Source: Takakia lepidozioides (Eukaryota > Plantae > Bryophyta). From it: a stretch of DNA of 64,000 nucleotides. The translations under genes and the position numbers were made by a program. Position 1 is the first letter of the stretch, and each line of letters begins with the position of its first letter. Positions 5,801 through 40,198 of this stretch are shown here, in pieces. The DNA is taken from assembly GCA_030704615.1 (NCBI GenBank), contig CM060733.1:62001-126000 (forward strand). The letters are read 5' to 3'. Below the pieces are notes generated by a model, which was not told the origin of the DNA, did not search any database, and saw only the letters and a list, made by a program, of their open reading frames with translations.

Positions 5801-5936
5801 TATCCATGACAAACCCTTGCAGCATGATTTGCATGTTGAACCGCAAGAGCAGTCACGGGCTGCACCAGTGTTACGAACGGAGTATGGAGCACTTGTCGCT
5901 AGGCCCAGCATATATGACCAGGGCGGGCAAAACAAA

Positions 5937-16171: not shown

Positions 16172-16260
16172 GAGGTTTACTATTTCATGAGCAGAAACCA
16201 TGAGCCATGAGCCATGAGCTGCATGAGCCGCATGAGCGGTGAGCTGAAGTCTAAGATACG
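16172..16260 (+). repeat. Left TIR with tandem CATGAGC heptamers
   Basis: GAGGTTTACTATTTCATGAGC followed by about five further CATGAGC units. Confidence 0.85.
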
Positions 16261-16726: not shown

Positions 16727-19589
16727 CTACCAGTACCTACGACGATACTTGGAAATGCGGCGCCGCATTTCCTTGTCGGAGGTCGAATGAGGAAAGCAAG
16801 TTTTCGAAAAGCAGAAAAACATGAACCCTCCAACATACATCGTCTCCACAATGGCTTGGCCATACTGCATAACAGCGGGCGGAATCTGGGGCAAGGGAGC
16901 GGTGGGAATTTCTCGCACGAAATCCCCGGTTGAAGGCGACGGCGATCTGGAATTTCTTGGGCTTCCACTGTTGGAAGACACATTGTGTGGCAACATGACG
17001 GGACCTCGAGGTGCTGTCCGAATGTTCCTGTCGGATCTCCAGGAATCCTCTTCGCACCCGGGATCCTCTTCAATCCTTCGCCTCACAGGGCGAGTCCGGA
17101 CGTCCCCCTCTAGGTGTTGACCTCTGCGGTGCAGAGGCGTCCCTTTGATCTTCTCTCGCAATGCTGTCGCCCATTTCAGTGGATTCTTGGACCTCGAAGC
17201 TGTTCGTACCAACAATTCCTCCCTGTCCGGCCCAAAGCCCCATTGTTTGCCGCTCAGGAACTTGTAGTACGTGGCTTGCTGCATTGTCGATGTCCTCCGT
17301 TGTGGCCGTCACTACGTCCACCAGATGTGCGGCAGAAGACGCTCGCCAGGAGGAGTGGACCGATTCTGCCATATTCGTGTTCGGCATGTCCGTGTCGGAA
17401 TCCAAGCACCGCTCCTAGAAGGACACAAACAATGGTGAGGGACCAATCAAAATGTCCGTAACAGAAAGACAAATGAACGAAAATGACAGCAGCCTACCTC
17501 CCGCATGTACTGTCCGAACTGTCGATACCGAAATGCCACCACCCCAACCAGCTATGCAATGCTCCCAGATTGGTTGTCTCCACTGCACCTGACGTGTTCC
17601 ACCAAGCCTCGATGATAGCAAACTTAACCTCCACGTCATCAAATGTGGGTGCATCCTTCCACGCCGTACAAAGGACACGGTGTTCAGCCTGGAATGAGCT
17701 AGCAACAAATTTGGTAGTGTAGTGGGATAGACTCTGCATCCAATGGAATCCACAGGATCTCTCTTTCCCCTCCATTGGAACATTGGGGTCCTCACCGTAC
17801 ACACGCCGCACCGCTGCCCAGTTGGCCTGAGCGTTGTCTGCCATGAATCCCCTGAAATTGGGCTCTGGCAATCCCGCCCTTGCCATCTGCTCGTTTATGC
17901 CCTCCCACAGATGCATCTCTGACTGTGTGTCCTCCCCTTTCATCTCGCAGATTGCAATCGTCATGAGCCTCTTGGAGTGATAGTCATAAACATGCGCACC
18001 CATAGTCACCCACTGATGGTTTGTAATTCGCTTGATGTGATCAAACATCACCCAAGCATTCGACAAGTTTCCAGTTGTCATGCGAGTGACCAAGTCGACT
18101 CCACTCCCAGGCCCACACATCGACATTTTGAAAATGTAACAACGATCGGATTCGCTGCCTTGCCCTGGAAACCTGCTACCTTGGATGTAGTCATATCCAG
18201 TCATTCGTTTCACCTCCAGGATTGAGTACATGTCCGACCCCCTGCCGAACTCCTGCTTGCAAGATACGATGTGATTCCGCACATTCGGACTACAAACGTG
18301 CGAACGGACTCCAAGAGGTCACGCATCTCGTCTTCGGTCAAGGGCTCTCGGTCGGAACCATCTTCAGACATGATTTGGCCAAGAGCAATCTTGTGGGCTG
18401 CCTTCAGCTGAATCTGCTTTGGTCTGGCTCCGGGGCTCAATTTCACCTCCTCTTTTATGATGTCGTGTGCTTCCTGCACAGCCTCACGCATGTTGCCTCT
18501 TGCCAAGGGGTGGCAGTGGACCCCAACGTGTATGCAAGCTCTAGTCAAGTCCGGGTGCAAATGGATTACGTAATATTGCTTGGCTCTGCACATGGACATG
18601 CACGTCGGTGGTTCTTTGCAATGTGCACACTTGAAAGAACCCGCAGGAGCTTGGCTGGAGACAATGAATGGATGATGCGTTGTGCCAGTCCAATCCGTCT
18701 CGTTTCTCCGCCCTCCTTTGGAGAGAAAGTGGAAGCAGGTGGGATTGAGGCACCTCAGCTTCCCCGCACAGAGGACATATCGTACACAAACACCATCAGC
18801 AATTTTCGTGCTACTGGTCTTCGTCACACACCAGGGGTGTCCGTCATAGTTTCGATCCATGTCTGTTAACATCCCGGAGGCTTTGTTTGACGAAGAAACA
18901 GGTGGAAACTCAAAGATGACATTGCCATCGACTTCGGGAGGCAGAAACGTTACCTTTCTGACTGGGAATTTGGCATAGTCGAGAGCAGCCAGCTCGGAGC
19001 GAGAACCATCGAGGTGATGTTGTCGTAGGAGCTGCACAATGGACCGGGTTGGAGTTATGCTCGAGGGCACATGCGTAGCACCTACAGAGACGTCCATGCC
19101 GGATTTGAACGACCGTGTGGAGGACATGGGTACCTCAATGCAATCATCTTCCTCGTCGGAAATGTCGAATACGTCCACACGAGAAGCTATGGAGGGTCTT
19201 GACGGTCCAGGTCGGGAATGATTATCGTTGCATACCTCTCTGTTGGCAGTGGCCGCCTGTCGGTTTCCGGACTCCTTTGTGGATGGTGTGGGCAGCGACT
19301 GATTCGGAAAGGGAATGGGCATTCCCACAGCTTGGTACAGGATGGTGTCTGATGGGGGTACGTGCCATTTGATTCCGCAACCTCCGTCGTTACCTAGCAC
19401 GACAATGGTCTCGTCAACCTGTCCAGGAACATCCTTCCTTTCTTCTTCCAAATAAACTGTGCCCGGTTTGAGCTTGAATTTGGAACAAAGGTAAGTTTCA
19501 GTCACTCTACAAAGTCCTCCCTCGTTTGGGATCCAGGCTCTCCCAAGTTGCGGAGGACAGCAAACTATAGCGTAGGAATTCGGAGCCAT
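16727..19589 (-). pseudogene. MULE transposase with N-terminal GCM-like (WRKY-GCM1 superfamily) zinc domain; frameshifted; intron 17415-17497
   Basis: Catalytic pattern WVMFD...FRGFMADNAQANWAAVRRVY...CGFHW (CxxH)...PNTNMAESVH. N-terminal DGHPW...CAGKLRCLNPTC...CAHCK...CRAK...GVHCHP. A GT-AG intron joins GQYMRE to ERCLDSD. Confidence 0.85.
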
Positions 19590-20005
19590 CGAACACCGCA
19601 CGAAGTTGGCAAGTGCGAGGTTCAGTATAGCGACAGACCAAGGCTCACAGGCACCAAGCGGAGTCCATCGATGATTGGAAGTCGCACATTGAAGTGGAAA
19701 GTATTGTTTCAAGCTACATGCATGAAGGTGGGAGGTGTGATTCCATAGCCAGTAAGTATGACAATGATGGCCGATTCGGCGACGAAATAACATCTCCTGA
19801 CAGTTTCTCCTGAGGGTGAATCCAGCAGTATTCTCGGTGCAGACAAGAACGTTCGCACTGACAAGTGCCAGTACTGTTAGTTAAAACGGTCAGACAACCA
19901 AGTTGTGCTCATCAAGACTGGCCGCAATTGTGTTGTTTCGGAACAATGCAACCCATTCAGGTTCCAGATTTCCCGTCCCGAGTGATTCTTTCGATTGCTG
20001 GTCGA

Positions 20006-21850
20006 CGGAAATACGGCGCCGCATTTCCGTATTGCATCTTGGTCATGCACCAGAGCGACGGCAATGCGGCACCGAGTTTCCGTCCGGGGGAAACCTTTAT
20101 ACTCTCCAGAACGGAAATGCGGTACCGCATTTCCATCCAGCAAGCACGGTATGTGAAGGTGGTACGGAAATGCGGTACCGCATTTCCGTTCTGATTGAGA
20201 ATTATGAACAACGGGAACAGAAATGCGGCACCGCATTTCCGTCACAGTCGCACCTTCCGACATACCAGAACAGAAATACGGCGCAACATTTCAGTTTTAT
20301 ATCTGACGCATGGAGCTGAGGGATAGAAATGCTGCACCACATTTCCGTCCTCACAAGACATTCATACTCTCCAGAACGGAAATGCGGTAACACATTTCCA
20401 TCCAACAAGCACGGTATGTGAAGGTGGAACGGAAATGCGGTACCGCATTTCCGTTCTGATTGAGAATTATGAACAACGGGAACAGAAATGCGGCACCGCA
20501 TTTCCGTCCGAGTCGCACTTTCCGACATTCCAGAACGGAAATGCGGCGCCGCATTTCCATTTTGTATCTGATGCATGGAGCCGAGTGCAATTCTGACCTC
20601 TTGAGACATTCATACTATCCAGAACGGAAATGCGGTACCGCATTTCCGTTCTGACTGAAAATCGTGAACCATCGGAACGGAAATGCGGCACCGCATTTCC
20701 ATCCGAGTCGCACCTCCCAACATTCCAGAACGCAAATGCGGCACCGCATTTCCGTTCTGATGAAAAATCGTGAAACATCGGAACTGTAATGCGGTACCGC
20801 ATTTCCGTCGGAGTCGCACCTTCCGACATTCCAAAACGGAAATGCGGCGCCGCATTTCCGTTTTGTATGTGAGGCATGGAGCTGAGGAACGAAAATGCGG
20901 CACCGCATTTCCGCCAGGGTCAGACCTTAAAACTGTACAAAACGGAAATGCGCTACCGCATTTCCGTTCTGATTGAAAATCGTGAACAACGGGAACAGAA
21001 ATGCGGCACCGCATTTCCGTCCGAGTCGCACTTTCCGACATTCTAGAACGGAAATGCGGCGCCGCATTTCCGTTTTGTATATGAGGCCTGGAGTTGTGGG
21101 ACGGAAATGTGGTGCCGCATTTCCATCCATGTGAGACCTTCAAACTTTCCAGACCGGAAATGCGGCACCGCATTTCTGTTCAGGTGAGATCTCTATACTT
21201 TCCCGAACGGAAATGTGGCACGACATTTCCGTTCATCAAGTAAGGTATGTGAAGGGGGAACGGAAATGCGGTACCGTATTTCCGTTCAAATTGAAAATCA
21301 TGAACCGCGGGAACTGAAATGTTGTGCCGCATTTCCGTCCGAATCGCACCTTTCGACATTCCTGAACGGAAATGCGGCGCCGCATTTCCCTTTTGTATCT
21401 CACATATGGAGCTGTGGGACGGAAATGCGGCACCCTATTTCCGTTCAACAACTAAGGTATGTGAAGGGGGAACGCAAATGCGGTACCGCATTTCCGTTCA
21501 GATTGAAAATCATGAACCACGGGAATTGAAATGTTGTGCCGCATTTCCGTCCGAATCGCACCTTTCGACATTCCAAAACGGAAATGCGGCGCCGCATTTC
21601 CCTTTTGTATCTCATACATGGAGTTGTGGGACGGAAATGCGGCACCGTATTTCCGTTCAACAACTAAGGTATGTGAAGGTGGAACGGAAATGCGGTGCCG
21701 CATTTTCTTCCAACAAGTACGGATGTGTAGCTTCGTGATGGTACTTAACGGAAATGCGGCGCCGCATTCGCATTTTCACTCCAACTCATCAGACGTTGGG
21801 ACAAAAATGCCTTGAAATGTGAACACGTGGAGCAACGGAATTGCGGCACA
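20006..21850. repeat. Array of ~33 copies of the palindrome GGAAATGCGG(CA/TA/CG/TG)CCGCATTTCC at 53-bp period
   Basis: Copies start at, for example, 21368, 21421, 21474, 21527, 21580, 21633 and 21686. The spacers form higher-order 212-bp and ~265-bp units. Confidence 0.95.
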
Positions 21851-21900
21851 TGTCTGCACTCTATCTGACTGAAGTGGCATGAGGCGGCGCGGCCTGACCG

Positions 21901-22626
21901 TGTCGCGCACCTCACTTCGGTAAGCTCCCCTTCAAGTCATAGTTACTCGCTTTGATGCGCGCGCCTGACTCCCAACCTGGCCGCCGGGCCAACTTGGAGC
22001 TTCGGCTGCTCACCAGGGCATAACGGTCCCCCCTTTGTTCTCCCAAAGAACCCTCCACCGATTTGGAACCAGCGGGAATTCCCTTTGGTAGTTGGCAGTC
22101 CGGAACAGCTCCCCACTCTTTGGTCGCTTTCCGGCTCGCTCGCTTACTCACTAGTTTTTGGTCACCAACGGGCTTGCACCGTTCTCGGGGTTACTACTCC
22201 CTATATATACTTCTGTAGCTGTCCGCGGGGGTTTCACAACCAGCCATGCCATTTTATGGCGAACCACCACGAAGACCCTCGATTCCCGGTGGTGAGTCGC
22301 GGTGAGTCTTGGCCCACTCACCGCGGCCCCAATGGACCGTGATGAGTCCCAAGACTCCCCACGACTCCCACCACGAGGTCTCCACCCCATGGTGAGTCCT
22401 ATGCCACCCCCACTAAGTCCCGCTAAGCTACCACCACCCTTGTGGAGCCACCCCCACCGCAACCCGGTGTGCGGGGCTCCACCTAGTGAGCGCCTCCGCC
22501 TCCTTGAGTGCCTTGGGCACTCAAGGGTGCTTCAGCCCCCGTACCTATCGCTGCTACTGCCCCCACCACAGGGGCAGCCCCTCTTGTGTCCCGACCCCCC
22601 TGCCCTCAAGGCAAAGGGCCGCGACA
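21901..22626 (-). repeat. 3' LTR of chromovirus copy 1
   Basis: 726 bp, near-identical to 28139-28865. Confidence 0.95.
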
Positions 22627-23531
22627 CACACCCCTACCAACAGGGAGTCGATGTCCTCATCGACTTGTCCATTTTGTAGAAACGAACATCCAAGTTGTGG
22701 CGTCCCACATCAAGGAGTTTGTTTCCGTACCATGGCGTCCCATGGCAAAGAACCAAACCCCACACTTGACTCTACTCTCCACTAGCTAGTTCGGCCGACT
22801 TCCTCCAAGTCCCGGCCAAGGGTGGAGCCTCTCAAGCTCCTCCCAGTGCACTCTTCTTGGCCTACTTCAAGGCCAAGGAACGATCCTCCCGAGGATCGAA
22901 TCGCCTTACTGCAACAACATTGCTTGCGACCGCTCATGATGCCGCTTTTGGCATCACCTTGAGCAAGGGTTCACCTGGAACCCTCTTTGACTAGGAAGAT
23001 AACCTTGAACCAACCGTGCGCCCCAATCACTACAATTGGGTCCGCCTTGGAATGCTGGCCTGAGGTACGGGAACACGCCGAAGCCGCACTACGACTTCGT
23101 CCCGAGGCTACACGATTATAGTACGTGAACGGAAGCACGTAGCTTCCGCGTTAGCCCGCACTACAAGGCAACCCCCTCGGTAGCGCAGTTATAGTACGCG
23201 CACGCGCCAGGTGCGCACTAGCACGTGAACTCCCAAAGAAGGCGCAAGTTTCCTTGCCCCTTGGATGGGGGTCACCCGATTTCGGCACTACGCAAACACA
23301 CGATTAACCCAATTTACCTCTCCCACTTTTATAAGCTAGCATGCATTCTACACACTAGCCAACCATACCATGCATCACCATTCCAAACAAAATAGGACGC
23401 ACAACATTTGGAACCCATTTCCTTTATAACAAATTTTTGTACAATACAAGTTTTTGCAATCGGATTCCTAAGCTAGCTAAGCCGGGCTAAGCATGCATTT
23501 CCTCCCCCACGCTCCAAGGTTGATGTCCCCA

Positions 23532-26500
23532 TCAACGTTTCTTCCGCTTTTGAGGTCGCCCTTCGAAAGCTGCAACCGCCTCGGATGCGTTTCCCATTTC
23601 TGAGGCACGCACCCAAGATGCCTCCACATGATGATAGCCCTTCCATTTGACGAGATACTCCGTTTCTCGGTTCTTGAACCTCCTCGACTTAAGTATTGCC
23701 TCCACCTCGTACTCAGGTTCATTTTCATGATCCAACAGCATAGGTGGCGGACGCAACACTTGATGCCGATTCGGACGCGCTTCATCTTTGAAGTAAGGCT
23801 TCAAAAGGGAGACATGGAATACTGGGTGCACCTTGCTGTTTGCCGGCAGCTCCAATTCATACACATCCTCATTCATAACCTTCCGAATGCGAAAGGGTCC
23901 CGCATACGGAGGTACGAACTTCGGACTCACTTCCGGAGGTAGTCGGAAATTCTTGATGTTCAACCAGACCTCTGTGCCTGCCTCAAACTTCACTTCCCTC
24001 CGCTTCCGATTCGCCTGCCTTTCATACCGTTTCCTAGCTTTGGCAATGTTGTACTTTGCGAGCTTCAACAAACGCTCGCGTTCTTCCAGTACCGCCGCTA
24101 CTGCCGGTTCCTCAACGTCCTGGGCGGCCCAACTTGTCGGCACCAGAGGTGCTTTTCCATAGACCAATACGAAAGGGGAAACTCCCGTTGCGGAGTGTTC
24201 TGTGTTATTATAACAGAACTCTGCCGCGTCTAAGTGTTCCATCCAGTCTGATTGGTCTGCCGACACGTAATTCCGCAAGAATTGCTTCACTACGGAATTC
24301 ACTCTTTCCGTTTGGCCGTCCGTCGTAGGTCGGAAGGCGGTGCTCATCTTCAGCCTCGTCCCCATCTTCTTCCAAAGTGTCCTCCAAAATTTACTCGTAA
24401 ACTTTGGATCGCGGTCCGAGACAATATCCTTCGGGACTCCATGATGCTTTAAGACGTGGGCGAAGTAAAGTCGCCCTGTCTCCTGCGCCGTTGCCGTCTC
24501 CTTGGTGGGGATGAAATGGCCCATTTTACTGAACCTATCCACCACCACCATGATTGCATCGAATCCTTTTGACAGCGGCATAGCAGTCATGAAATCCATC
24601 GAGACGCTTTCCCAAGTCCCCTCTGGAATCGGCAAGGGTTGTAACAGCCCCGCTTGCTTTTTGTACTCGCTCCGGTTTTGTTGGCATGTGGTGCATGTCT
24701 TGACATACTCCTCTGCCTCCTCCCTCAGTTTGGGCCAGAAATACTCTTTCTTCAAGAGTGCCGCAGTGCGCTTGGCTCCGCCGTGGCCCGCAAGCGGGCT
24801 ATCATGGCATTCTCTCAAGAGGCTATCTCTGATCCCTCCCTTTGGCACGTAGAGACGTTTTTGCTTATACCGGAGCAGTCCATTTTGCAAGTGGAAACTG
24901 CGATTTAACCCCCATCCTCAAGTCCTGCATCACGGACTTCGCCAGCTCATCCTTCCGGCAAGCCTTCCGGATCTTCCTTTGGAGCGCCGTCTCGCCCTTG
25001 TACACCAACAAGAGCTGCTGCTTTCTACTTAAAGCATCGGCCACCACGTTGTCTCGTCCCGGTTTGTACTGGATATCCACGTCGAACACCGCCAAAGTAT
25101 CTTGCCACCTAAGTTGTTTTGGGGACAACTTGGGCTGCGTGGCAAAATACTTCACCGTGACATTGTCCGTGAACACCTTCACTGGGTTGGAACCAACATA
25201 GTGGCGCCAAAGCTCAAGACAGTGCACCACCGCCTTCATCTCTTTTTCGTGCGTCGGCCACCGTCGCTCCACTTCATTCAGTTTCTTACTTTCGTAAGCC
25301 ACTGGACGTTCATCTTGCATAAGTACACCCCCAATCGCGAAGTCCGACGCATCTGTATGAATCTCAAATGGACGATCGAACTCCGGGATTTTCAAGACTG
25401 GAGCTTCCGCCATCCGCTGCTTCAATTCAGCAAAAGCTTGGCCACAAAATGTGTTCCATACCCAGACTTTGGATTTACACAGAAGGTCCGACAGCGGCCC
25501 CGCGATCTTGGCGAAATTTCTCACATACTTCCGGTAATAGGAGGCGAGTCCTAGGAAGGATCGCACTCCCGGGACCGAAGTCGGAGGCTCCCAGTCCAAG
25601 ATCGCCCTCACCTTTCTGTCATCCATTTTGATCCCATCCTGTGTAATCACATGCCCCAAGAACTCCACTTTCGTGACCCCGAATTCGCATTTGAAGCTTT
25701 GGCGTACAGCTTCCCTTCCCGCAACTTTTGGAACACCCTTTTGAGGTGCTCCAGGTGTCCTCCTTTGTTTTCGAGTACACCAAGATGTCGTCGATGTACA
25801 CGATCACAAAACCACTCCTGAAAAAGGCTGTTCATCAGCGTGCTAAAGGTCGCCGGTGCATTGGTGAGCCCAAAAGGCATCACCAAGAACTCATATGAAC
25901 CATACCTTGTCCTGCACGCGGTCTTCTCCTCATCTCCTTCCGCCACCCGAATTTGATGATAGCCGGAGCGCAAGTCGATCCGGCTGAAATACTTCGCTCC
26001 TGCCAACCGATCGAAAAGGTCGTCGATCCTTGGCAAAGGGTACCGGTTTTTGATAGTCACCTTATTCAAAGCCCTGTAATCGACACACATCCGCAGCGTC
26101 CCATCCTTCTTGTCTGCGAATAGCACCGGGGCTCCGTAAGGTGACTTACTCGGCCGGATGTACCCCTTTGACATTAGATCCTTGAGCTGAGTCTTCAGCT
26201 CGACCAACTCTCTGTGGCTCAACCGGTAGGGCGCCTTGGCAGGCGGTTCCGATCCCGGTATCACCTCAATCTTGTGGTCAACTCCTCTTCGCGGTGGCAA
26301 GCCGCTTGGTAAATCCTCCGGCATCACATCCTGGTATTTCTCCAAAATCCCCTTGATCCAATCTGGGCTCGGCTCCCCATCGCCTTCTCCTTTCACTTCT
26401 CTAATGTAAAGCAAAAACTGGGACTCGTGTGCCTCCTCCACGGCCCACTCCTTTGCTGACAGAAGGTTTATTCGCCCTCCCACGGATTTGGGCGTTTCCG

Positions 26501-28083
26501 ACACTCGTAAAACCTCGCCACCATTCCCACATGGCAGCGTGACTACTCTCTTGCGGCCATCTATGACCGCTCCGGATTTGCTCAAAAAGGTCATCCCCAA
26601 AATGAGATCCACTCCATCGATCTCGCAGATGGTGAAGTTCTCACGTCCCTCCCAACTCCCCAGTTGAAGAGGAACATCAAACGCCAACCTTGTCGCCAAC
26701 TGAGGTTCTCCTTTGGCAGAGCGCACCTCAATAGAGGCCCCCACGTCACTTGTCGGGAGTCCCAACTTTCGCGCCGCCGCTGGCGTCATGAAGGAGTGCG
26801 ACGCTCCTGTCTCCACCAACAACGACACGTTAGTTCCGGATATTATCCCATCCACGAACAATAACTGACTCCCTTTACGCAGGGCGCCAGTTTCCTGATA
26901 CAACTCACAAGAATAGTTGCCTACCTTGCAAGTCCTGGCGACCACCGCTTCCACCAAGCGACTGATGGTATCTTCCGACAGCTCCGTGGTTGCCCGAGTC
27001 ATGTTCAATTGTCGAGGTTTTGTGCACTTCTTGGCCATGTGCCCGGGCTCCCCGCAATTGAAACACACTCCATCAAAGGTCGCCTTCTGTCCGCCATAAG
27101 CCGCTCCACCCGCTTTTCCTTTCGAAGCACCGGGTGCCGCCTTGATGTGTGAAGGCCCTCCCTTCGATTTCCACGTGCCATTGTCGCCGCGTGGCCTATC
27201 CCACTTCTTTTCCGGTCGGAAGGAGTCACCTTCCTGCCGGGTCTTCTTGTGGTTCAGCTCCGTACGGCCTTGTCTCTCACCCCTAGGGACATCTGAGAAA
27301 CATTCAGCCCTCTCAATTGCCTCGTTCAAAGTCTTGGGTGGCTTCTCCTCCAACTTCCGCCTGGCCCATGGGGCCAGTCCCGCCACAAAGTTGAAGACCA
27401 TTTCTGGTTCTGCCATGTCCGCGACTTCGAGCAACAGCACATTGAAAGCCTGGACATACCCCCGAATGTCATCTGTTTGCTTCAAATTCCTCATCTTGTC
27501 CCGGGCAAGCCAGGATGCGTTGAGGGGCACAAACTGTCTCTTCATCAATTCCTTGAACCCACTCCAGTTCAAGGTTTCCGGGCTTGGGCCTCGGTCGTGA
27601 AGGCGTTTCTACCACCATTGTTGAGCATAGCCCCTCAAATAGGTGGGAGCCACTTCCACCCGATCCTCGTCACTCAACTTGGCCGCCCGGAAGTACTGCT
27701 CTAGCTCCAGGAGCCAGTGTTGAGTGCCTTCCGATTTCGGACGCCCTCGAAGGTGCCGGGTTCCTTAGGCTTCACCTTAAACTTTGCCTTAGTGGAAGTG
27801 GCATTAGCCGCCTTCAACACGTCTTTCAACGTCCCGCCAAACTGCGCCAACAACCCTTCCAAAAGGCTGCCGGCATGGGAGGCATCTCTTGGTTTGTCGG
27901 AGCTCTCAAGGATTCCTCGGGCTCCGACTCCTCGGATTCCTCCCGCTCTTGAGCGGCCTCGTTTTCGGAAACATGCATCGCTTCCTCAAACGGCCGCCTC
28001 GGTGACACGTCGCCCCCATCGGGCTCACCAGGATCATCATCTTTTGGGCCGTTCCGCTTTCGCTTTGGCTTGCCCGACCCCAT
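23532..28083 (-). pseudogene. Gag-Pol of chromovirus copy 1 (gag, CCHC, PR, RT, RH, INT, chromodomain), several frameshifts
   Basis: [14 protein letters not shown]; VETGASH (protease Asp reads Glu here); [37 protein letters not shown]; chromodomain YEVEAILKSR...EYLVKWKGY...SW. Confidence 0.93.
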
Positions 28084-28124
28084 GATGAGGCCAATCCCAA
28101 GGACGATCGCGTACTGAACTCTAA

Positions 28125-28136
28125 GCTCTGATACCA
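28125..28136 (-). promoter_or_regulatory. Primer binding site (tRNA-iMet)
   Basis: TGGTATCAGAGC on the minus strand, 2 nt after the 5' LTR. Confidence 0.92.
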
Positions 28137-28138
28137 AG

Positions 28139-28865
28139 TGTCGCGCACCTCACTTCGGTAAGCTCCCCTTCAAGTCATAGTTACTCGCTTTGATGCGCGC
28201 GCCTGACTCCCAACCTGGCCGCCGGGCCAACTTGGAGCTTCGGCTGCTCACCGGGGCATAACGGTCCCCCTTTGTTCTCCCAAAGAACCCTCCACCAATT
28301 TGGAACCAGCGGGAATTCCCTTTGGTAGTTGGCAGTCCGGAACAGCTCCCCACTCTTTGGTCGCTTTCCGGCTCGCTCGCTTACTCACTAGTTTTTGGTC
28401 ACCAACGGGCTTGCACCGTTCTCGGGGTTACTACTCCCTATATATACTTCTGTAGCTGTCCGCGGGGGTTTCACAACCAGCCATGCCATTTTATGGCGAA
28501 CCACCACGAAGACCCTCGATTCCCGGTGGTGAGTCGCGGTGAGTCTTGGCCCACTCACCGCGGCCCCAATGGACCGTGATGAGTCCCAAGACTCCCCACG
28601 ACTCCCACCTCGAGGTCTCCACCCCATGGTGAGTCCTATGCCACCCCCACTAAGTCCCGCTAAGCTACCACCACCCCTTGTGGAGCCACCCCCACCGCAA
28701 CCCGGTGTGCGGGGCTCCACCTAGTGAGCGCCTCCGCCTCCTTGAGTGCCTTGGGCACTCAAGGGTGCTTCAGCCCCCGTACCTATCGCTGCTACTACCC
28801 CCACCACAGGGGCAGCCCCTCTTGTGTCCCGACCCCCCCTGCCCTCAAGGCAAAGGGCCGCGACA
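28139..28865 (-). repeat. 5' LTR of chromovirus copy 1
   Basis: 727 bp with TG...CA ends. Confidence 0.95.
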
Positions 28866-29177
28866 GACCGTTGGATAATGATGTTTGTTTTTCGGACGGC
28901 AGGCGTACCCTGAACGATTCGAATTTTGTAATGACGCAAAGTCCACGAGGAGACACTTTCGTCCAACCCTTTCGAACCCAAGTGGTGCATCACCGCCGTT
29001 TCATCTACTTTTGTCATGTCTCCTCAGTCACCCCTCTCGCGCCCTTTCCATCTGCACTCTTTGCCCCTTTTCCCTGTCTCTATTCTTCTTATGCTCGAAC
29101 CTGAGAGGGGGGGAGTTCGTGCACCAGACAGGAGACCTCGTCGCAAGCTCCGAAAATTATACTTCGGACGTAGGCCA

Positions 29178-32100
29178 ATGCCGAAGGGGAGGAAGCAGAT
29201 GCGTCTACAGGAGGAGATTGCCATCTCCGAGCAGCAGGCCACTCAGGCAACCCAGCCACCAGTGAGAGCTCCATGCGATCGGGCTGCGCGCAGCTGATCG
29301 AGCACCGAACCCCCATTTTGCTTCTGTAATTCTTAGACTGAATGCTAGGAGACTTGAATGCAGAACATGTTTGCATGCCTAACAGGAAAGGTGGATGTGC
29401 TGGAGGGATCGCAGGAATCCGAAGAGCCGCAGGAAGAGTCCGTGGAGCTAGCTGCAGCACGTACACCCACCCGATCCCCGAGCGCGGGTATTCCTGCCGG
29501 GCCTAGCCCTGTGCGTTTCAAAGACGCGGCTTCGAAGGGCAAGTTCAAAGCCCCAGAGATCGACTCGCGTTCTTCGGTCATGGAGAATCGCCAGCAGGGG
29601 TCGGGCCCTTCTCCAGCAAAGTTGAAGAAGAAGCAGCCCGTCCCTCTACTGGTTTCTGAACCGGCTCAGGCCGTTTCACCCCACCAAACGCGAATGAAGC
29701 AGCAGGGTAAAAGACAGATTCAATTGCAGCAGACACCTTCACCTGCAAGGATGAGGAAGCAGAAGGCAATCAGGGCGACGGCCGAACAATCTCCCGCCTG
29801 CAGATGTTGGGGCCGTCTCTGCTGCAGCGAAGGCAATGGGATCGACCGTTTCTGTCGATTGGTACCGGAGGAGGGTGCTGCCGCTCAACGTTCGCAGCAA
29901 GACCTCACCACCGATGAGCAAGCAGGCCCGGAGGAGGCCTCTGCAATGGCAGAATTGCCCGCAAATAGGCCCCAGAGTGCAGCTCCAGTTGAGGATGCTC
30001 TAGCTGCTCAGCCACTACCGGCACCTACAGACATGTCTCCGGAGATTTCAAAGTGTGCAGCGGATAAAATGTTGGAGGAGACACACAGTAGCATTGGCAG
30101 AGTCTGGGGCAGCAGGGTATTCCAGCGGACTCTTCGAATCCCACTCTGTCGCATGGTCTCCCTTCCCATCGTCAGGCAGGCCCTTCCCGGAGATGTGGAT
30201 AAGCTGAAGTTCGCATTTCGAGAAGGGTACCGTCTGGGATCGGCAGCGCGTTTTACGTTTCCATTGAGAATGAGGACGGCGAAACTCGTGGGACCCACTG
30301 CCGATGAATTGTCAACGTGGGATACCACTAGCACACTCGCAACCACGAATTCGAGGCGACTCTGAAGGGTGATCCAGACTTCGGCCATATGTCGGGTAAA
30401 ATGTCTATTTGTGGGTCGGGAATCACCGACTTCTTGCCTGGTGGGAGTACATCAAGCAGAACCATGCCAAGCACATTGGCTGGCATTACATGGTGGAGTG
30501 TGTCATCCTCAAGGTGAAGGCGGCAGACTCCTCCCTACTCAAGAATGCCATGGCGGACCTCAACTCGTAAGATACTCATACCCTCCCTAGCACGTTCGAA
30601 ATGCGGTGCCGCATTTCGGTTTCCATTCTGGTTTGTTTCTGTGCTTCCGTGTACTGAACTGGAGAGTGTGCCTTGCAGGGTCACTGAGAATGCGTACGTG
30701 CATACCCACATGCACATATGCTGTACATGGTGAGGAAAACTGGTCTCACTGATCCGCAGATGTTTGCGGAAATGCTGGAGCCCGAGCTCATTCAGAAAGC
30801 CGTTGCAAAAATAGACCGGACATGGTATCGTCTCACTATGGATGGAATGGTGGAGGTGATATACGAAGTAAGTCGTCCTCCAATTTCCCTCTGCTCATCC
30901 TTCCCCAATTTCCAGTAATCTTTCCACATGAATCGAATGTAACGCTTCTGCATGTTTTTGTTGGCAGTCAAACATCAAGCTGGATTTGGCCCATGCCAAA
31001 CGCTTCTTCATGGAAAGTGAGGGGCAGGTCAAAACGTTGCAGTCATTGACTGAGCACTTGAAGGGAAGCCGGTGTCAAGTCCAGAACCAAATACAAGTCA
31101 AAGCTTGTGAAGCTGGTGGCAATTGCAGATCCGACACTTGGAAAGGACTTCATCCCCGAGATTGCAAAACACTATTCTCGGGCCATGCAGCCGACCATGC
31201 AATTGGAGAAACTGCATCACCTCTCAACGATATGTGTTGAGGCGAAAGAGAAGGTGAGGTTTCAATGCACTGAAGTTCCTTCCTAGCAATAGCCACTCTC
31301 TCCAGCTCCTGACATTGGATCGAAATGGCAGACACGGTGGCTGTCGATCTGGAATGCATCCGAGAGCATAAGGACAATGTGGTCTTTTCCACTCAAAAGT
31401 TTCCGACCCTGCAGTGGATGTGTGGCTCAACGCATGACTTGGTGGTTCCAGGTAATTCAAGGTACTTCCCCAGATTTGCTTTTCTGAAATGAATTCCCTG
31501 AACTGCTAGTGACAATGCATTTGGGAATCGCAGGTAATGTCGAATGCGAAGGAGCAAGTCGTAATGCACACAAATTCGTTCGGCTTGTACGTCAAATGGG
31601 ATGGAACACAGACATTGGAAGACTACGTGACACGTTTCAGATGTGCGTACAAGGACAACCTTTTGCCAGAGAGCTACAGACAGCAAGAAGGAGCGTGGAG
31701 TTTACACATCAAGAGGGGGGAGCGGAGGAAAGCTGCAATGCGAATTGTTTACAGGTGAAGCACAGCTGCCCTTGTATGCGAAGCCTGGTTACGAGGTTTG
31801 TCTCGGAAATGCGGCACCGCATTCGCATTTTATGTTTTCGGTGGCACCCTGCCAGTAGGTTGGTCTCAACTTTTGCTCACGCATGCTGACTGCCTTGCGG
31901 TATATGAAATACATGCTCCTTCAGACAAGGGCCCTGGCTCAAGAGCCCCCGTTCTTCATGGCTTGGACCGTGGCGGCCCAAGCTGTGTCTACACACCCGA
32001 GAGCAGAAAGAAAGAAAAAATGGCATCCCGCGCATCTCGTTGGATGCCCCTGGTACCTGGACATGTCTGCGGTATTGTTGATGAGTCTGAGAAAGATCTG

Positions 32101-34233
32101 CACTTCTTGGCAGAGAGAAGAGAAAAGAAAGACGTGTCCCTGCTGGGCCAAAGTCGGCAAAGGAATCTGCTACTCTGGAAGAATCCAGAAAGGCAGCTGA
32201 GATGGCACAAAAGACGGTGGATGCAGCTGTGCAGGCCCAACAGAAGGGGTGAAAGAAGAGGACTCGCCAGCAAGGAGCAGCTGTTGTGACACCCGCCAAA
32301 ACGAAGCAGAAGCAGAAACAGCCTGTTCAGGAAGAGGGTGAGGAAGAGGACTCCGATGGAGACTTTGCAACCAGCCCACCCCCCCAAACGCAGGCTGCCT
32401 CCCTGTGCCCACCGTTGTCACAGAGGGCACGAGAACTGGCTCGGCAAAGAAGGCACTCTTCAACCCCCCAGGGGGCCACCTTTCGAGCCCGGTGGAAATG
32501 AAGAGGCGAAAGTGGCTCCCGAAACAGTAGTCCAGTGTGTAAATGAGAGTTTCTTGGCGGCTTTGGATGGACGGGCAGCGAAGTGGCATACATGAAGACC
32601 ATGGAGGGTCTGAAGGGCAGAGCACTGAAGAAGGGCGACTGCCGAAGAGCCTTCCGACACCCCAGGATTCAGAATATGGGTCTCGTTCTTTGAGAGGGTG
32701 TGTGTGCAGACAAGGATTGTAGGAGGGGCGGAAATGCCACCGAGTGGTCTTGCGATATGATCATCTTGGATATTCCGGACGGAGAGCCTATGGAAGGACT
32801 GCAAGCTTTGCCATCTTGGAACAGATACTCGGAGGACTTTGGAAGAAAGGATTCGGGCTTGCCCGCATGTGTTGGATGACAGAGGCTGTGTGGGTTGTCC
32901 TGGCGAGCAGAGAAAAAAACACTCAGACAAGAATTGCGAAGTGGACCCGCAAGAGCGCCGTCCCGATTCTGAATGAGAAGTGGACGTGCATCAACACACT
33001 GGGCCTTTGGTCAGAAGGGAAGAGGAAGGTGATACGACACTAGCACTCGTCCATTCATTTGCTTGGGTGTTTTCAAATGCGGTGCTGCATTCGGTTTCTA
33101 ATCGTTCCCTCCCTGTGTATGCAGACGAAGCAGTTCGATGCATACTGCTTTGTGAAGGAGAACTCCACCTTTGCTTTCGGGGAGGAGGGAGGAAAGGTTG
33201 ACCCCAAACTGCGACCCCCCTCGATTATGACGTTCTGTTCAACAACGTTCCCAAGGAACTTCTCCCTCATAGCCTCACTTCAACGGAACCCATGCGGTAC
33301 TCACGGACTCGGAGCCCTGCCTTCATTCAGACAATTATGGAGACATGCACAGACGTGGAGGGCACAGTGCTCGACCTCATCTGTGGGACAGGTATGCAGA
33401 ATCTTGATCTATGCTGTTCTGCAAATTCTCGTTAGGATGTAGTTCGCAACATCTGAAGCGCCATTGTTGTAATGTGGATGGCATTGTAACAGGTGCCTCA
33501 ATGTGGGCTGGGCGGTTTCCGACCGGCACCTCTTTGCCTACGAGGAGGATTCATCCATGTGGGGATCCCATCTGGAAGGGCTGCAATGGAATGTAAAGGC
33601 TCCCAACAGAGCGGAAGTCTCCTCGGATTCATCGGAGTCCGAGGAAGACACAGTGGACATTGATGCGGAGGAGAACCCGGAATACGAGGTGAGTGAGTGC
33701 GAACATTGTAAGTTTGCAAAGCCTTCTGGGTCATTTTGTCAAACGAATTTCCGGACTGTGGTTCTCATTAGTCTCGTTGATGATTGTCATGTGCAGGATT
33801 GCAGGGTCGGGTCGAAACATGTAGGGCCTACACTCCCTGCCAGGAAGAATTGTCCCGTTCTTTGCGAGGGCCGACTTCATGACGAGCCGGGTGAGGGACT
33901 ACTCCTTCCTAGTTATGCAGCTAAACTCGCAAATACAGCGATTAGAAGAAGTGAGAATCCCAGTAAAGTAGAGCAGATTTTGGAGAGGGCTAGGGAGGAC
34001 AGAAGGATAAGGAAAGAGTGTGGCAGCAGCTCAGACAGGTAGACGGGTACGAAAGTAATATGTGATTCAGCGGATGAGAGCGACGCAGACAGGGAGGAGG
34101 AAGACGACCCAACGGAGGTGAGATGGACAGTTCCGCAAGGGGAAGATGGGATTTTCGAAAGCCTAGCCAACAAGCAGTCCGCTGGAGATGAGAGAAAGGC
34201 AAGGGGGGTGGAGGCGGGAGTAAGACAGTCTAG
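29178..34233 (+). pseudogene. Multi-exon MULE cargo gene: disordered N-terminus, ParB/Sulfiredoxin-like domain, beta-class amino-DNA-methyltransferase-like (N6_N4_Mtase) domain; many frameshifts
   Basis: GT-AG introns at about 29262-29385, 30567-30678, 30868-30967, 31452-31533, 31755-31858, 33030-33124, 33392-33492 and 33689-33797. YLWVGNHRLLAWWEYI at 30406-30453. CDMIILDIPDG at 32751-32783. RSPAFIQTIMETCTDVEGTVLDLICGT/GASMWAG..SDRHLFAYEED across the 33392-33492 intron. Confidence 0.72.
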
Positions 34234-34396
34234 AACAGGATGAGGATTCGGATGATTTTCAAGATTAATAGAATTTTAATGAAGTCTCTGTAAATGTAAA
34301 TTCTCTTCCAGAGTATATAAAGGAAATTCTCCCCGACATTTGTGACCCCTGCATTCCAGCCACATAATCGCCCAAACCACGACGCTCCCAAAATCA

Positions 34397-35230
34397 GAAA
34401 TGGGGGCACCACATTTCCAAATTTTGGCAACTCTAAAAACCTCTTTGGAAATGCGGCACCGCATTTCCAAAACAGGGGAGGGACTAAATTTTCCATTTCA
34501 ATGTTGGCATAGTAAAAAGTAATCGGCCCGATATTGGAAATGCGGTGCCGCATTTCCAAAATTTCCTTTGTCACACGCCAGTTTTGGCCTCTCCCGCTCA
34601 TTGCATGGATGCCACCACGCTTACAGAGGTCGAACAAGGAGGTCGAACAAGGAGGTCGAGATGGCGGAATTGGAAATGCGGTGCCGCATTTCCATATTGG
34701 GGATGGTCGTTGTTCGAACTGCAGGCCCATCAGCAAATATTGGCACCGCATTCCATTGTCAAAAAAAAGTCGATGACGGACATGGAAATGCGGCGCCGCA
34801 TTTCCAGAACGGACATCGCAATTTGTCCATTGGCAGACCCTCTCACGGAAAAGCGGTAACGCATTCCATCGCGCTGGTCGGAAATGTCACACTTTTCGAA
34901 GTGTTGGACGGAAATGCGGTCACGCATTCCCTTGTCCAAAAAGAAGTTTCCTTGCCAAGCTGGAAATGCGTCGCCGCATTTGCAATGTCAACCTCGTTGT
35001 CTGTCCAATTATAGACCCGTGTGGTATTTCGTTGTACCTGGACGGAAATGATGCACCGCATTCCATTGTCCGACACTAAAATGCGGTGTTCATACATTTC
35101 CATGTCGGCCTTGAATGCGTCACCGCATTTCCTTGTCCACATGGAATGCGGTGCCGCATTTTCAATGTCCGACATGGAAATGCGGTGCCGCATTTTCAAT
35201 GTCCGACATGGAAATGCGTGCCGCATTTCA
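34397..35230. repeat. Second, less regular array (roughly 14 copies) of the GGAAATGCGGNNCCGCATTTCC palindrome
   Basis: Copies at about 34447, 34536, 34672, 34784, 34910, 35143 and 35176, among others. Confidence 0.9.
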
Positions 35231-35487
35231 ATGTCCGACATGGCGTTACTCGGTATATTCTTGACACATACTCTCATACCGGTTACTCTGGTATATTCAT
35301 CCGGACAGACAAATGTAGAAATGAGACATCAAATTGTAAAACAGTGGGCCAATTCGACAGTTATTCAACAGAATTGAAACACAATCATACAAGAAGAAGT
35401 GAGGTTACGATGGGTTTATTGATCGGACACGATGTCTCACATTTACCAATTGCAGACAAAACTAAGCCCTTCTCCTTCTACAGGGCT

Positions 35488-36357
35488 TCACCAAGTCGAC
35501 GGAACTTCGATACCCCTCAAAAACAGCTCATTATGCTGCGGCACCTCGAGGGTAAACTGCAATTCGGTCGTTCTGCTGCCCTTTGCTGGAGCCGACGACA
35601 AGTCATGTTCCATCAATGATACCACCATCATACATTGAAAAGGTCGTTGTGGGCCTCATGTGCCCGTGCGATTCGTCTTCGCAACTCCAGGCCGAATGTC
35701 TCCATACACTGGAAGAGCGCGGAAGAGTGATCTGCACGTATATAGTTTTCCCCGGTGCCATCCTCCTGGTCCATGGCAGCAGTTCCAGCGCCCAAAGCGA
35801 GGCCGTGCGTGATCTGTCCGGCATCCCTTTCCAGCTTGGGTATATCGAGGTCAACAATTTTTCAGGACCCACGGACCGCATGGACCTCGCCCTCACCTCG
35901 CTTCAAAGCTGGTTGTTAATAGCCCTCAGATTACTCCATTGCGCGCAAAGACTCTTTGCTTGCTACAGCAAGCGTCGCTGAAAACATGAGGCCAGACAAT
36001 GATGTCTCCCATGATTTGGTGGAAACATAGCATAATCGTGGCCGATGAGAAGGGCAGTCGGCTGGATTTCCGCGGCACGGGCATTCCTTGAAAAAAGAGT
36101 CAGCGGAGTTCACGCTCAATGACAGCAGCATCAAGGATGGAGGAGGAGCAGCGCGGTGGCTGGAAAAAGTTCAAGCTAACGCTGCAATTCCTCACAAACA
36201 CTCCAGGGCACATTTAAATTTCCCCCCTACAGGATCCTGGACCGATGAAGATTGGCTGCTGCATGAATGTAGCCGTTTCAGTTTCCTACCCTGCCATGCA
36301 AACTATGGGCAGTCACTGCCAGGTGGGCCGATAGCCACTGGACACGACGAAGTCCAT
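35488..36357 (-). pseudogene. Unknown MULE cargo gene A (frameshifted), paralog of 36402-37207
   Basis: Collinear peptide blocks shared with gene B: MDF, CPCRGNPADCP..HDYAMF, PWVLK.VDLDIPSWKGMP, RWNCC, YGDIR, SMYDGGIIDG, ELFLRGIEVP-STW-stop. Confidence 0.65.
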
Positions 36358-36401
36358 CCCCTCTTCGATGTAAATGCGGCGCCGAATTTCCATCCGGGGG
36401 G

Positions 36402-37207
36402 ATGGACTTCGGTGTGCAGATCTCAAACTATAACTTGTTGATGAGAAAGATGTATGGGTTCATCCACCGCTGGCGTGATGAACACGTTCCACCTCCGTCG
36501 GTGGGTACGTGGGACCCAGATGCTCCATTATTGGAGGCCGGACTGCTCTTCCGCTTCGCATCATTTCCAAAATCTAAGGGCTTCGTAGCTGTCCGCAAGG
36601 TCATTGTCATCGGCATCCAAGTCGTCCTCAGGTCCTCCTTTGCAAGGATGCCGTGCTTCCGGAACCGGGACGACTGCCCATTTGGAGGCATCGATTATGC
36701 AATGTATTCGGCCACATCGGGAGTGTTATCTGGTACACAGATTACAGAGAAGATACTGGTTCGATTGTGGAAACATTGGTGGCTTTTGAGTATATCCTAG
36801 GCCACTACGCCTTCGAGCGGGGTGACGATCTTGGTCTGAGGAGTCCGTGGCTCCTGCGCATCCTCGATTCCGATTTTCCCAGCTACGACGGTCACCCATG
36901 CAGAAGAAGGCGCACTGCTATGCTGTTGCGGTGGAACTGCTGCCACTGGACGTGGGTGGACTCCATCGGAGAGACCTATTCTCCTGAAGGAGTGCGCTCC
37001 TCTTCTCCATTGTATGGGGACATTCGCATTGGTGTGGACGACGAAAACGTGAAGATTTCCATATTCGATGGTGGTATGATTGAAGGGCAGGACATTGTGG
37101 TGAACATCACTAGGGGCGGTACAACGGCTGCAATCGACTTTACCTGGAGGAGCCCCATGACTCATGAGCTAGTTCTGAGAGCAGTCGAAGTCCCATTGAC
37201 AACGTGA
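36402..37207 (+). CDS. Unknown MULE cargo gene B (~268 aa, one apparent frameshift near 36720)
   Basis: Overlapping ORFs 36402-36800 and 36653-37207 with blocks MPCFRNRDDCPFGGIDYAMY, PWLLRILDSDFPSYDGHP, RWNCCHWTW, YGDIRIG, SIFDGGMIEG and ELVLRAVEVP. Confidence 0.68.
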
Positions 37208-37616
37208 CTTGTATTCAGTAGGCACAGGGCTAAAGATTTGATTGCACAATCAGCACAGTAGACGTGCTTCAAATGCAATTCATGTGGATCAATAAAAACC
37301 TCATTGTGCCCTCTTTTTATTCTATTCTGTGTCCATCGTTCCGAGAATGCGTCATTGCTCATTTCGTTTGGGATTGGGAGTGTGGGTGGATTTTGCAAGT
37401 GGCTGGTAGGCTGAAATGGGCCCCCATTGTACAGAGCAGTACCACCCTTCCATTCGCGAAACATTGCCTTTCAATATATAATTCTAAATAACATTGCCGA
37501 ACCTCCTTCATCGGGAGGTCCTTCTCCCCCTATGACCGTGGCACCCTAAACCCTATTCCCGCGGACACTCATTTCCGGAAAATAGTGCTGCTCATGTTTT
37601 TTTCCACACTTACGAC

Positions 37617-37670
37617 TCTGCTCATGGCTCATGCCGCTCATGGCTCATGGCTCATGAAATAGCAGCCCCC
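37617..37670 (-). repeat. Right TIR with tandem GCTCATG heptamers
   Basis: Reverse complement matches the left end (17 of the terminal 21 bp) plus the heptamer repeats. Confidence 0.85.
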
Positions 37671-37710
37671 CTACAGCCCTTTTGTTTTTTTTATTTCCAT
37701 TTATCAATCC

Positions 37711-40121
37711 AACTTTTTCAATCAATCTGGATGATATTATTATAGGATGCATGAACTAATGTACAGGAAGCTGGTTTACCATCTATTTCTTTCATCTAAA
37801 CTAGATGAACTACATGAATAATGGTTACCTGTTTTAAAATCCAAGAGATAATAAAACTACCATCATAAATGATGGCAGTTATTAAACCTAAGCCTATACC
37901 ATAACCCTAAAAGATACCTTTTATGGATGTCATCATTGACAATGTGCTTCTCTTGATAAAATGTGATTTTTCATCCACCTGGATGAGAAATCGGGAAGTA
38001 TTGCCCTAAGCACGCCGACACATTCACAACACTGAACTCGTGCTTCAGTGAACCTTGATGATGCGCCGCGTAAATCTGCTCCCCTGCTGCTACATGATAC
38101 TCGTGATGGCTGGCTCTTGGGATGCGCATTGGCGGTTAGGCAGATTCATCTCTGACAGACGACAAAGCGATGATCACTTTGCTCAGAAACTCATGGTTCT
38201 TTATTTTGCAGCGGCGCTTTTACTCCTCGTTGGGAAGTACTCTATCCCTATTTATATACATAGTACATGTTGCTCTCTTCTTGTATGAGCCATTCTCTAT
38301 CTGTGAACGCTTCTATTTTGATTTCTGTTGGAGACGATCTGTTGGACGCCATGGCGCAGGGCATACCACAAACACTCAAGGTTTTTTGAGTTTACCCTTG
38401 CTTGAATTGTGATCTGTACATGCTTTAGAATTCAACACTGACATGGATAGCAACTGTGAAGACCTGCCACTCACCTGCTGCATCCTCGCTAACACACATC
38501 GCTATGTGGTGGTTTTTGGGACGGGCACAGGTGAGGGTCTTCACTTGTCTTGATTTCTTGAAGCTTGCAGCTCCTGTTCTTGCAAATGTGGATACTGCTG
38601 CCTGCCTAAGCTGCTGATGCCATTTGCTGCTTCAAACTGCCACCATGCCGCTTCAGACCTGCTCCAAGATGGCTCCAATGAGGATCTGCTTCTCTCCTTA
38701 CCCCTGTTTCTGGTTTTTTTACAACCACATTTGCATGTGTAGGAGTTTAAGCTATGAAGGGTACAAGGGTACAAAATAGCAGTTATTACTCTGACTGCTT
38801 TGATACTTGGCTCTGAAATGAAACTTCTTGGTATGACTTTGATGGATCAAAAGGATAAGCTTTGATAGATAACACACATTCTTCAAGGCCCTCATATCAT
38901 TTTGGTTTCATGGCTTGATAACAAACAGGGGTTTCTGAGCTGCTCTTTCACCTTGGCAGAGCTATTTTATGAGGCCTTAAAATACCATTCCAGGCCTATA
39001 CCTGCTTAAGGGGGCTCAACCCTGTTGTTTCTTCTTCCTTTATAAGAATCTTGCTTGTATCTTGGTTCTGAAACATCAACTTCAAACCAGTACTGTTTCT
39101 TAGGGAAGTGAAATGCTCAAGACCTGGATTTTGTTTGCCTTGGCCCGCTAAAGACTCTCAATTTAAAGGCCTGGCTGCAGGCAGGGTTCTTCTGAGTTTC
39201 TTTGTTAACTCAGATCTTTGGAGGTTCTAGAATACCACTCAAGACCTAGATCTGTTTTGGAACACTCAACCTTGCATAGGTTTCTTGTTTACTGCTTGTG
39301 GTTTGGCATTGATACATCACCAAATTAGCTTTGGAATGAAACCTCTCAGCTTGACTCTGTTGTGTCAAACAGGTACGCCTTGTTTAGGGAACACACACTC
39401 TCATTATGGCTCTCATAGCAGTCTGAATTTGAGGGCTGATAGCAGGCAAATTTGGGATAATTTGCCTTGCTTCTGTTCTATGATTCCTGCTTTTGACACG
39501 ACACTGAAACGTCACCTTCAGGCCAGCAATAGCCTCTAGGGATAAGACTCGTTCAAAACCTGGATGTTGGCATGCAGCCTCATGATATATACCATGTCTT
39601 GAACCATGCCAATAGGGCAAGAGGAAACATGATGTAAACCAGCAAATGCTTAAGGCATATTTGTTTGACTGTTCAAACTCAACTTGAATTGTTTTTGAGC
39701 ATGAGTCTTGAGGAATGTCCCAAGACCTACAATCTGGTTTTCACAACTTGTTTTGCTAAGGTGTTGTGTCTACTTGCAAATACTTAAGGCATGAATGGCT
39801 GGCTGTTTCAACTTGAAGTGCTATGAGCTTGATTCTGGGAAATATCCCCAAACCTGCAATCTGGTTTTTGAAATGAGTTTGAAATGAGTTTTTGAAATGA
39901 TGGTGCAAACTATGGTGCTTTCATGATATGATTGACCTGGAATCCCACCCTCCCACCCTGTTTTTTCAGAGACCCTGAAATGTAATGGGGTATTCAAATG
40001 AGATTGTAAACATGAAAGGGAATGTTAGATGGTGCCCTGTAAAGGGCTGTTTTGTCTTTCAATGACAATGACCTTAGCGGTCTTGTCCATGTCTTGACAT
40101 GACATGTATATCTTCCCTCTC
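37711..40121 (+). repeat. Tandem unit copy 2 right part (to 39925) and start of copy 3 (39926-40121)
   Basis: Near-identical to 12690-15116. Confidence 0.93.
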
Positions 40122-40198
40122 TCTCTCTCCTCTCTTTCGTGCTGCTCACCAAAAGAAAAAAACCACAGAGGGAAAGAGGGGGTAGAAAAAGTTAATAA

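Follow-up and report, generated by a model that had tools for sequence, protein, structure and literature searches.

A beta-class amino-methyltransferase-like domain with a DIPD motif IV in the predicted accessory gene of a Mutator-like transposon of a land plant

Introduction

VANDAL elements are Mutator-like DNA transposons. One of their accessory proteins, VANC21, was described to bind non-coding repeats and to hypomethylate VANDAL21 (PMC5735166). A different kind of transposon cargo, consisting of ParB-like and amino-methylase (amino-MTase) domains, is already published for algae. In the Ectocarpus element Sola1-1_Ec32 such cargo is located opposite to the transposase. The report cites similar proteins of green and red algae and proposes that the accessory protein binds and modifies its own element (PMC12477816). 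For the Plavaka elements of Bostrychia, the genes PAG2 and PAG3 are described as PF01555 and ParB-like cargo with inverted-repeat arrays beside the ParB-domain gene PAG3, and homologs of Plavaka accessory genes are reported to occur in Mutator elements of Chondrus (bioRxiv 10.1101/2025.02.11.637652). ParB-fused MTases of chlorophytes as well as likely inactive MTases in DIRS1 elements were described by Iyer et al. 2016 (PMC4738411).

Here we analysed a 64-kb stretch of land-plant DNA, called the window in the following. It carries an MTase-like domain that appears to form the C-terminal end of the accessory gene of a Mutator-like transposon, downstream of a likely ParB-fold domain (Table 1). 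Two aspects are new with respect to the algal cargo: the carrier is a Mutator-like element of a land plant, and the catalytic aromatic residue has been lost throughout the family. Titles, abstract starts and term counts, with limited coverage of subscription papers, brought up no land-plant report of such cargo.

Table 1. Coordinates of the element and of its predicted accessory gene in the window
Feature	Position	Strand	Remarks
Probable left end	16180..16240		CTATTTCATGAGC and CATGAGC repeats, inverted relative to 37620-37662
Mutator-like transposase	17330..19880	-	GCM-like zinc domain, D..D, CxxH (CGFH), E motif in short downstream exon
Array of 33 palindromes (GGAAATGCGGYRCCGCATTTCC)	20007..21771		mostly 53-nt period; between the two divergent genes
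Chromodomain Ty3/Gypsy retrotransposon	21900..28868	-	inserted between palindrome array and accessory gene; outside the system
Whole predicted accessory gene	29178..34243	+	low-complexity start, ParB-like domain, helical middle exons, MTase-like domain
Likely ParB-fold domain	30111..30566	+	GNHR near 30420; frameshifted in window copy
MTase-like exon A (3' part)	32745..33028	+	strand ending in motif IV-like DIPD, then motif V/VI-like VLDDRGC
Predicted intron	33029..33124	+	GT..AG, 96 nt, phase 0, inside MTase-like domain
Exon B	33125..33391	+	motif X-like RTRSP and motif I VLDLICGT
Predicted intron	33392..33492	+	GT..AG, 101 nt; splits last Gly of motif I
Exon C	33493..33688	+	helix after motif I, motif II-like HLFAYEED, acidic tail
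Predicted intron (33689-33796), then predicted acidic low-complexity last exon	33689..34243	+
Ten palindromes	34447..35197		downstream of accessory gene
Single palindromes	16751; 30597, 31805; 36370		30597 and 31805 both in predicted introns
Probable right end	37620..37662		inverted repeat of left end

Results

The MTase-like domain is predicted to span three exons

The first-pass annotation of the window had quoted a set of peptides as parts of a beta-class amino-MTase hidden across introns and frameshifts. A three-frame translation recovered all of them in place: CDMIILDIPDG at 32751-32783 (with the DIPD codons at 32769-32780), VLDDRGC at 32869-32889, RSPAFIQTIMETCTDVEGTVLDLICGT with its end at 33390 just 5' of the intron 33392-33492, GASMWAG after this intron and then, past a frameshift, SDRHLFAYEED. 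The intron that had been proposed there has GT..AG boundaries, which enclose 101 nt. A second predicted intron, 33029-33124, was absent from the annotation. Splicing of both would distribute the domain over three exons. In the window copy exon A is frameshifted near 32837, 32869 and 32892, exon B once near 33203-33206 and exon C near 33515.

The joined exons resemble beta-class amino-MTases

Single exons of the window (16 pieces searched in Pfam) gave no relevant match and in particular none to PF01555. We therefore built our own profile from 33 non-redundant beta-class MTases, which were drawn from 75 relatives of E. coli YhdJ on viral contigs. As query we used the spliced peptide with X placed at the frameshifts. 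Its residues 1-12 (32709-32744) may be off-frame (the covering contig has one unlisted gap); the local HMMER match begins after them.

Against this profile the spliced peptide scored 16.5 bits, compared to 6.9 bits for the best of 2000 shuffles (1693 of which were scored) and 4.2 bits for the reversed peptide. Upon splicing out the intron 33392-33492 the score of the whole peptide increased from 10.2 to 15.9 bits. A local HHalign comparison provided a probability of 94.6% and a score of 54.9 (best of 100 column shuffles: 23.3), and the global comparison, at 95.3%, was colinear and placed DIPD on DPPY. The significant local match is limited to motifs X-I-II. Exon A alone, which contains the putative motif IV, scored 2.6 bits; this was equalled by 24 of 3000 shuffles in HMMER and by none of 150 in HHalign. 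The assignment of motif IV, for which exon A alone gives moderate support, is thus weaker than the X-I-II match.

Taken at the sequence level, profile score and HHalign confirm that the joined exons encode a beta-class amino-MTase-like domain (N6_N4_Mtase, the PF01555 kind), in agreement with the fold that had been claimed for them. The claimed motif order, with motif IV N-terminal to X-I-II, holds with the moderate support provided by the shuffles. Concerning the HMM search that had been suggested as a check, the spliced peptide does match our local profile, but single exons remain without a PF01555 match. The nearest named clusters among the atlas neighbours of exon B are all SAM-dependent MTases, which at 0.82-0.84 we take as a lead only. 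A fold obtained for a 95-aa exon-B fragment from a relative was too poor to use (pLDDT 46, pTM 0.22).

The DIPD motif appears to be shared by the sister copies

At the place of the catalytic motif IV, (D/N/S)PP(Y/F/W), we found DIPD in the window as well as in the majority of its family. This motif retains the Asp and the second Pro, while the first Pro is replaced by Ile and the aromatic residue by Asp. Within the 33 sequences of the profile, motif IV reads DPPY in 18 cases, SPPY in two, and EPPY and DPPF in one each; the remaining 11 have no pattern match in their first 120 residues.

Sister copies are known as short contigs only. At least nine sequencing runs contain the stretch or a part of it, three of them at least half of its words, and none of these runs is recorded as RNA. 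Four sequencing runs were compared on 32500-33800, of which three yielded contigs (two from one sample and one from another study) and one yielded none. The summed read depth of the family was very high, where depth does not equal copy number. The dominant contig of the independent study spans 32507-32824 and deviates by only two substitutions (32580 and 32790), neither of which is in the DIPD motif. No run had a change in codons 32769-32783 among the 40 of 72 substitutions listed. Based on these two observations we take DIPD to be the family state. Decay in this copy, which had been considered as the source of DIPD, is thereby largely excluded, with DIPD being the majority state in two studies, and we reject a private mutation since sister copies retain the motif. 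The loss of the aromatic residue appears accordingly to be a trait of the family and not of a decaying window copy.

The frameshifts behave differently. Among the 12 of 29 indels listed, those at 32837, 32892 and 33515 were found in all of the depth of the independent run and in about one third to all of the depth in the other two runs. Together with loose ends at 32869 and 33216 they explain the frame changes, such that the family is probably open in frame from motif IV on. The frameshifts thus seem private to the window copy, being absent from sister copies in two studies, which keep DIPD. Errors of the assembly may account for part of the breaks, as young repeat pairs of the window are distinguished to a large extent by homopolymer indels of one base (4 indels versus 1 substitution in one pair, 3 versus 5 in another). 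Other breaks appear to be real decay. From 25 changes picked among the 40 listed, 10 of the 16 private C>T/G>A changes are at CpG, which makes up 120 of 670 cytosine contexts. Due to this CG bias the window copy was likely methylated.

Distant relatives keep exon B with seemingly relaxed SAM motifs

A phmmer search of 1.84 billion representatives provided six matches. Two of them (P0007 and P0009) are repetitive proteins and were dropped; the other four are true relatives of exon B at 34-43% identity. In all four the similarity ends at or just before the intron 33392-33492, and P0011 continues past this point with GM, just as the window reads without splicing, which together support that this intron is conserved. 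The similarity of P0011 also picks up again directly after the intron 33029-33124. One relative, P0008, matches PF01555 weakly (E 0.13), and another matches a phage DNA-methyltransferase family (E 0.25). None of the four includes exon A, so that motif IV is known for the window family only.

Searches for homologous proteins with exon B or with an exon-B alignment found no full-length relative, which is weak evidence. Two metagenome loci (L001 and L002) were discarded because they match, by chance, a different reading frame of a bacterial gene that resembles a regulator. Neither exon B nor the palindrome nor the transposase had a match among viral contigs, and the transposase and the motif IV DNA had none in prokaryotic genomes. 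Searches of PDB sequences and, by tblastn, of phages provided no informative match.

Neither the window nor any of the four relatives has the motif X His (HPxxKP), and three of the four carry another residue in place of the first Gly of motif I. The constraint on the SAM site therefore looks relaxed, with the domain still being kept at 34-43% identity. The window itself retains GxG and the acidic residue of motif II and has lost, besides the His, the Phe of FxGxG. In models of N4CMT and CcrM and in DNA m6A MTases, the motif IV Tyr is described to stack on the target base (PMC10406627, PMC3814359). Since the first Pro and the aromatic residue are lost from motif IV and the SAM motifs are relaxed in the relatives, a pseudo-enzyme appears to be the likelier state of the domain. 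Its inactivity is uncertain, because the Asp and one Pro are kept, RNA MTases are described to tolerate Ile at position 2 of motif IV, and in RlmJ a Trp reportedly takes over the stacking of the Tyr.

These data also bear on an active variant amino-methyltransferase, which would write 4mC or 6mA on or near the palindromes of the element (see below) as a self mark that excludes 5mC. The Asp of motif IV, the GxG of motif I and the acidic end of motif II, all kept in the window family, would fit to such an enzyme, as would the 4mC or 6mA product predicted for the Ectocarpus protein and the RlmJ example of another aromatic residue supplying the stacking. Given the exchanges of the aromatic residue to Asp and of the first Pro to Ile, the lost His of motif X and a motif I that is degenerate in three of the four relatives, we consider this reading improbable.

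It seems similarly doubtful that the MTase-like domain is a dying, hitchhiking relic, for which a master copy lost its activity and was then amplified, such that the ParB-like part alone, or nothing, matters. A single base change, a transversion, separates DIPD from DIPY, and DIPD could have spread by amplification of a single master copy. Furthermore, the window copy is broken and the family was sampled from one species label and one plant metagenome. However, the indels of the sister copies together restore an open frame through the domain, and four relatives at 34-43% identity keep exon B with the similarity ending at the same intron, which points to long-term selection.

The accessory gene probably joins a ParB-like and a MTase-like part

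A single transcript is inferred to join the ParB-like and the MTase-like parts. The ParB-like region has no Pfam or PHROG match; its atlas neighbours are clusters of DUF6551, ParB_N and DUF3723 with scores of 0.87-0.90 (recognition 2749). We treat the ParB fold of 30111-30566 as a lead. A SWIM finger considered near 31740 had no Pfam match and was rejected.

The carrier is probably a GCM-type Mutator element

In the window the transposase carries the motifs FD..MAD..CGFH..AESVH and is frameshifted near 18310. It is divergently oriented to the accessory gene. It has six relatives at 39-47% identity and no Pfam match. The model of one of these relatives (P0004, 44% identical; pLDDT 53) matches ISCth4 (E 9e-4), which we take to be a member of the IS256 family, and the GCM domain 1ODH (E 9e-3). 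With modest support from this model, the carrier would belong to the GCM-type Mutator (MULE/IS256) superfamily. Sola1 transposases are of the DDD type. Sola1 was rejected as carrier in view of the CxxH/DDE signature, the IS256-like fold and ends that differ from the AACCG type.

Mutator elements are described to have target-site duplications of 8-10 bp and long TIRs (PMC5225508). The features of the transposase fit to this description, whereas the element has short inverted ends only and its flanks are themselves repeats. A clean target-site duplication was not found at the probable ends (16180 / 37662). The flanks, 11444-16171 and 37700-40128, consist of repeats in the order A-B-A ... B that are 99.6% and 97.7% identical, and the element sits near an A/B junction of these repeats with no clean duplication.

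The probable right arm of the element holds, at 35490-37210, two divergent, paralogous and broken genes of unassigned function (27 aa at 41% and 16 aa at 50% identity in tblastx, E 1e-6). The palindrome at 36370 marks the centre of the pair and is part of an inverted repeat of 82 nt; the one piece searched had no Pfam match.

The window contains further repeats and genes. The chromodomain Ty3/Gypsy retrotransposon is present in two copies on opposite strands (21900-28868 and 48927-55859), which are 95% identical and have LTRs of ~730 nt. The region 1119-10386 contains a Gypsy element with an intact pol ORF of 1768 aa, followed by three unannotated ORFs of ~290-310 aa (7760-10386), with tandem microrepeats at 5905-6170 and 10510-10770. 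Fragments of a CACTA-like transposase (DUF4218, DUF4216) are found at 56040-57814. At 59228-61076 there is a PPR gene split over several frames, whose repeat period of 303 nt would suit a P-L-S triplet. Such a PPR array would fit a land plant as host.

A 22-bp palindrome is confined to the element

A palindrome of 22 bp occurs in 37 copies at up to 2 mismatches, compared to 0 in 100 shuffles. Allowing for up to 5 mismatches, 47 copies were found, all of them within 16751-36391; none was in the transposase ORFs, recognised coding sequence, the inserted retrotransposon or the rest of the 64-kb window. In the two 10-bp arms AAT and ATT are conserved in 46-47 of the 47 copies and the outer CpG positions in 42-43, while the central two bases vary (C in 28 and G in 21 of 47). 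Conserved arms around a variable centre would suit the site of a dimer, for which we predict binding; tandem amplification homogenises arrays too. The central CpG varies almost only by transitions, which argues against a full protection of the palindromes. The high CpG observed/expected ratios in the arrays, 1.38 and 1.10, were disregarded, given that the repeat unit is rich in CpG to begin with.

By analogy with VANC we tentatively favour, with somewhat less than even confidence, that the accessory protein is a catalytically disarmed factor for self-recognition and anti-silencing, which is predicted to bind the element's own palindromes. The direct basis of this proposal is the MTase-like sequence, the family-wide DIPD, the class of the transposase and the confinement of the palindromes to the element, outside of recognised coding sequence. 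Anti-silencing is weakened by the signs of CG methylation that the window copy and the palindrome centres bear.

Bacterial ParB acts at its own promoter, and TnpA is a helper of CACTA elements. Following these models, a palindrome-binding pseudo-enzyme could have an architectural or autoregulatory role and act on transposition or on the element's own transcription instead of on host silencing. The largest array being located between the two divergent gene starts, the site 36370 in the middle of another divergent gene pair, and the CG-type decay in the window copy and at the palindrome centre agree with such a role. It is nevertheless somewhat unlikely in our view, as the probable termini carry the CATGAGC repeat and not palindromes, and the placement in introns and intergenic DNA matches the targets of VANC.

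Discussion

For the disarmed anti-silencing factor that we favour, the following mechanism can be envisaged. One spliced transcript would join the ParB-like and the MTase-like parts, and a dimer of the protein would recognise the two 10-bp arms of the palindrome in the manner of ParB and parS. The MTase fold would serve as a dimerising, DNA- or SAM-binding module that does not transfer methyl groups, which we propose because Asp stands in place of the base-stacking aromatic residue. With the intergenic array, the introns and the 3' array occupied, cytosine methylation might then be locally blocked or reversed, as it is by VANC in VANDAL elements, such that the promoters of the element would be shielded from host silencing.

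If binding of the palindromes indeed blocks silencing, transposons would have met the challenge for which Arabidopsis elements use VANC a second time, here with a protein of bacterial origin. Since the family has a very high read depth and its 22-bp site is defined, the hypothesis published for algae can be tested directly in a plant. Should the domain still methylate, the accepted catalytic motif would be widened and a transposon source of 4mC/6mA in land plants would be added. A far-reaching version, which we regard as quite improbable, is a land-plant Mutator family with a bacterial-style ParB/parS system: here a ParB-fold dimer at private 22-bp palindromes would carry a non-canonical DIPD MTase fold that still writes 4mC/6mA, or caps flipped cytosines, to exclude host 5mC. 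Such an anti-silencing device, programmed by sequence, would have evolved independently of VANC.

The first-pass annotation had compared the domain to bdelloid N4CMT and Marchantia DN4MT1. The beta-class motif order is indeed shared with these eukaryotic proteins (PMC10406627; bioRxiv 10.1101/2021.02.12.428880), but the closer class was missed: the domain appears to travel as cargo on a Mutator-like transposon, where it follows a likely ParB-fold domain, and algal examples of such cargo are already published. N4CMT and DN4MT1 are described as host genes with an intact SPPY and with 4mC activity that was demonstrated or genetically supported, while the domain found here is transposon cargo without SPPY.

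As for VANC of Arabidopsis, we are dealing with an accessory protein of a DNA transposon and with repeats specific to the family, which are located in introns and in non-coding DNA that is intergenic or terminal (PMC5735166). The function of VANC was shown experimentally, whereas here it is predicted from the distribution of the repeats; homology to VANC is not expected. PAG2 and PAG3 of Bostrychia likewise bring a PF01555-type methylase and a ParB-like domain into giant DNA transposons, with tandem inverted repeats by the ParB gene. In the Bostrychia account there are separate genes, one joining the methylase to SET and the other the ParB domain to a 2OG oxygenase, whereas both parts apparently belong to one gene here. 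Sola1-1_Ec32 of Ectocarpus agrees with the present locus in combining a ParB-like domain and an N4C/N6A methyltransferase in one gene, on the strand opposite to the transposase, in an element of ~21 kb. It differs in being a Sola1 element with a 4-bp TSD and AACCG termini, whereas the carrier here is Mutator-like, motif IV reads DIPD and the host is a land plant.
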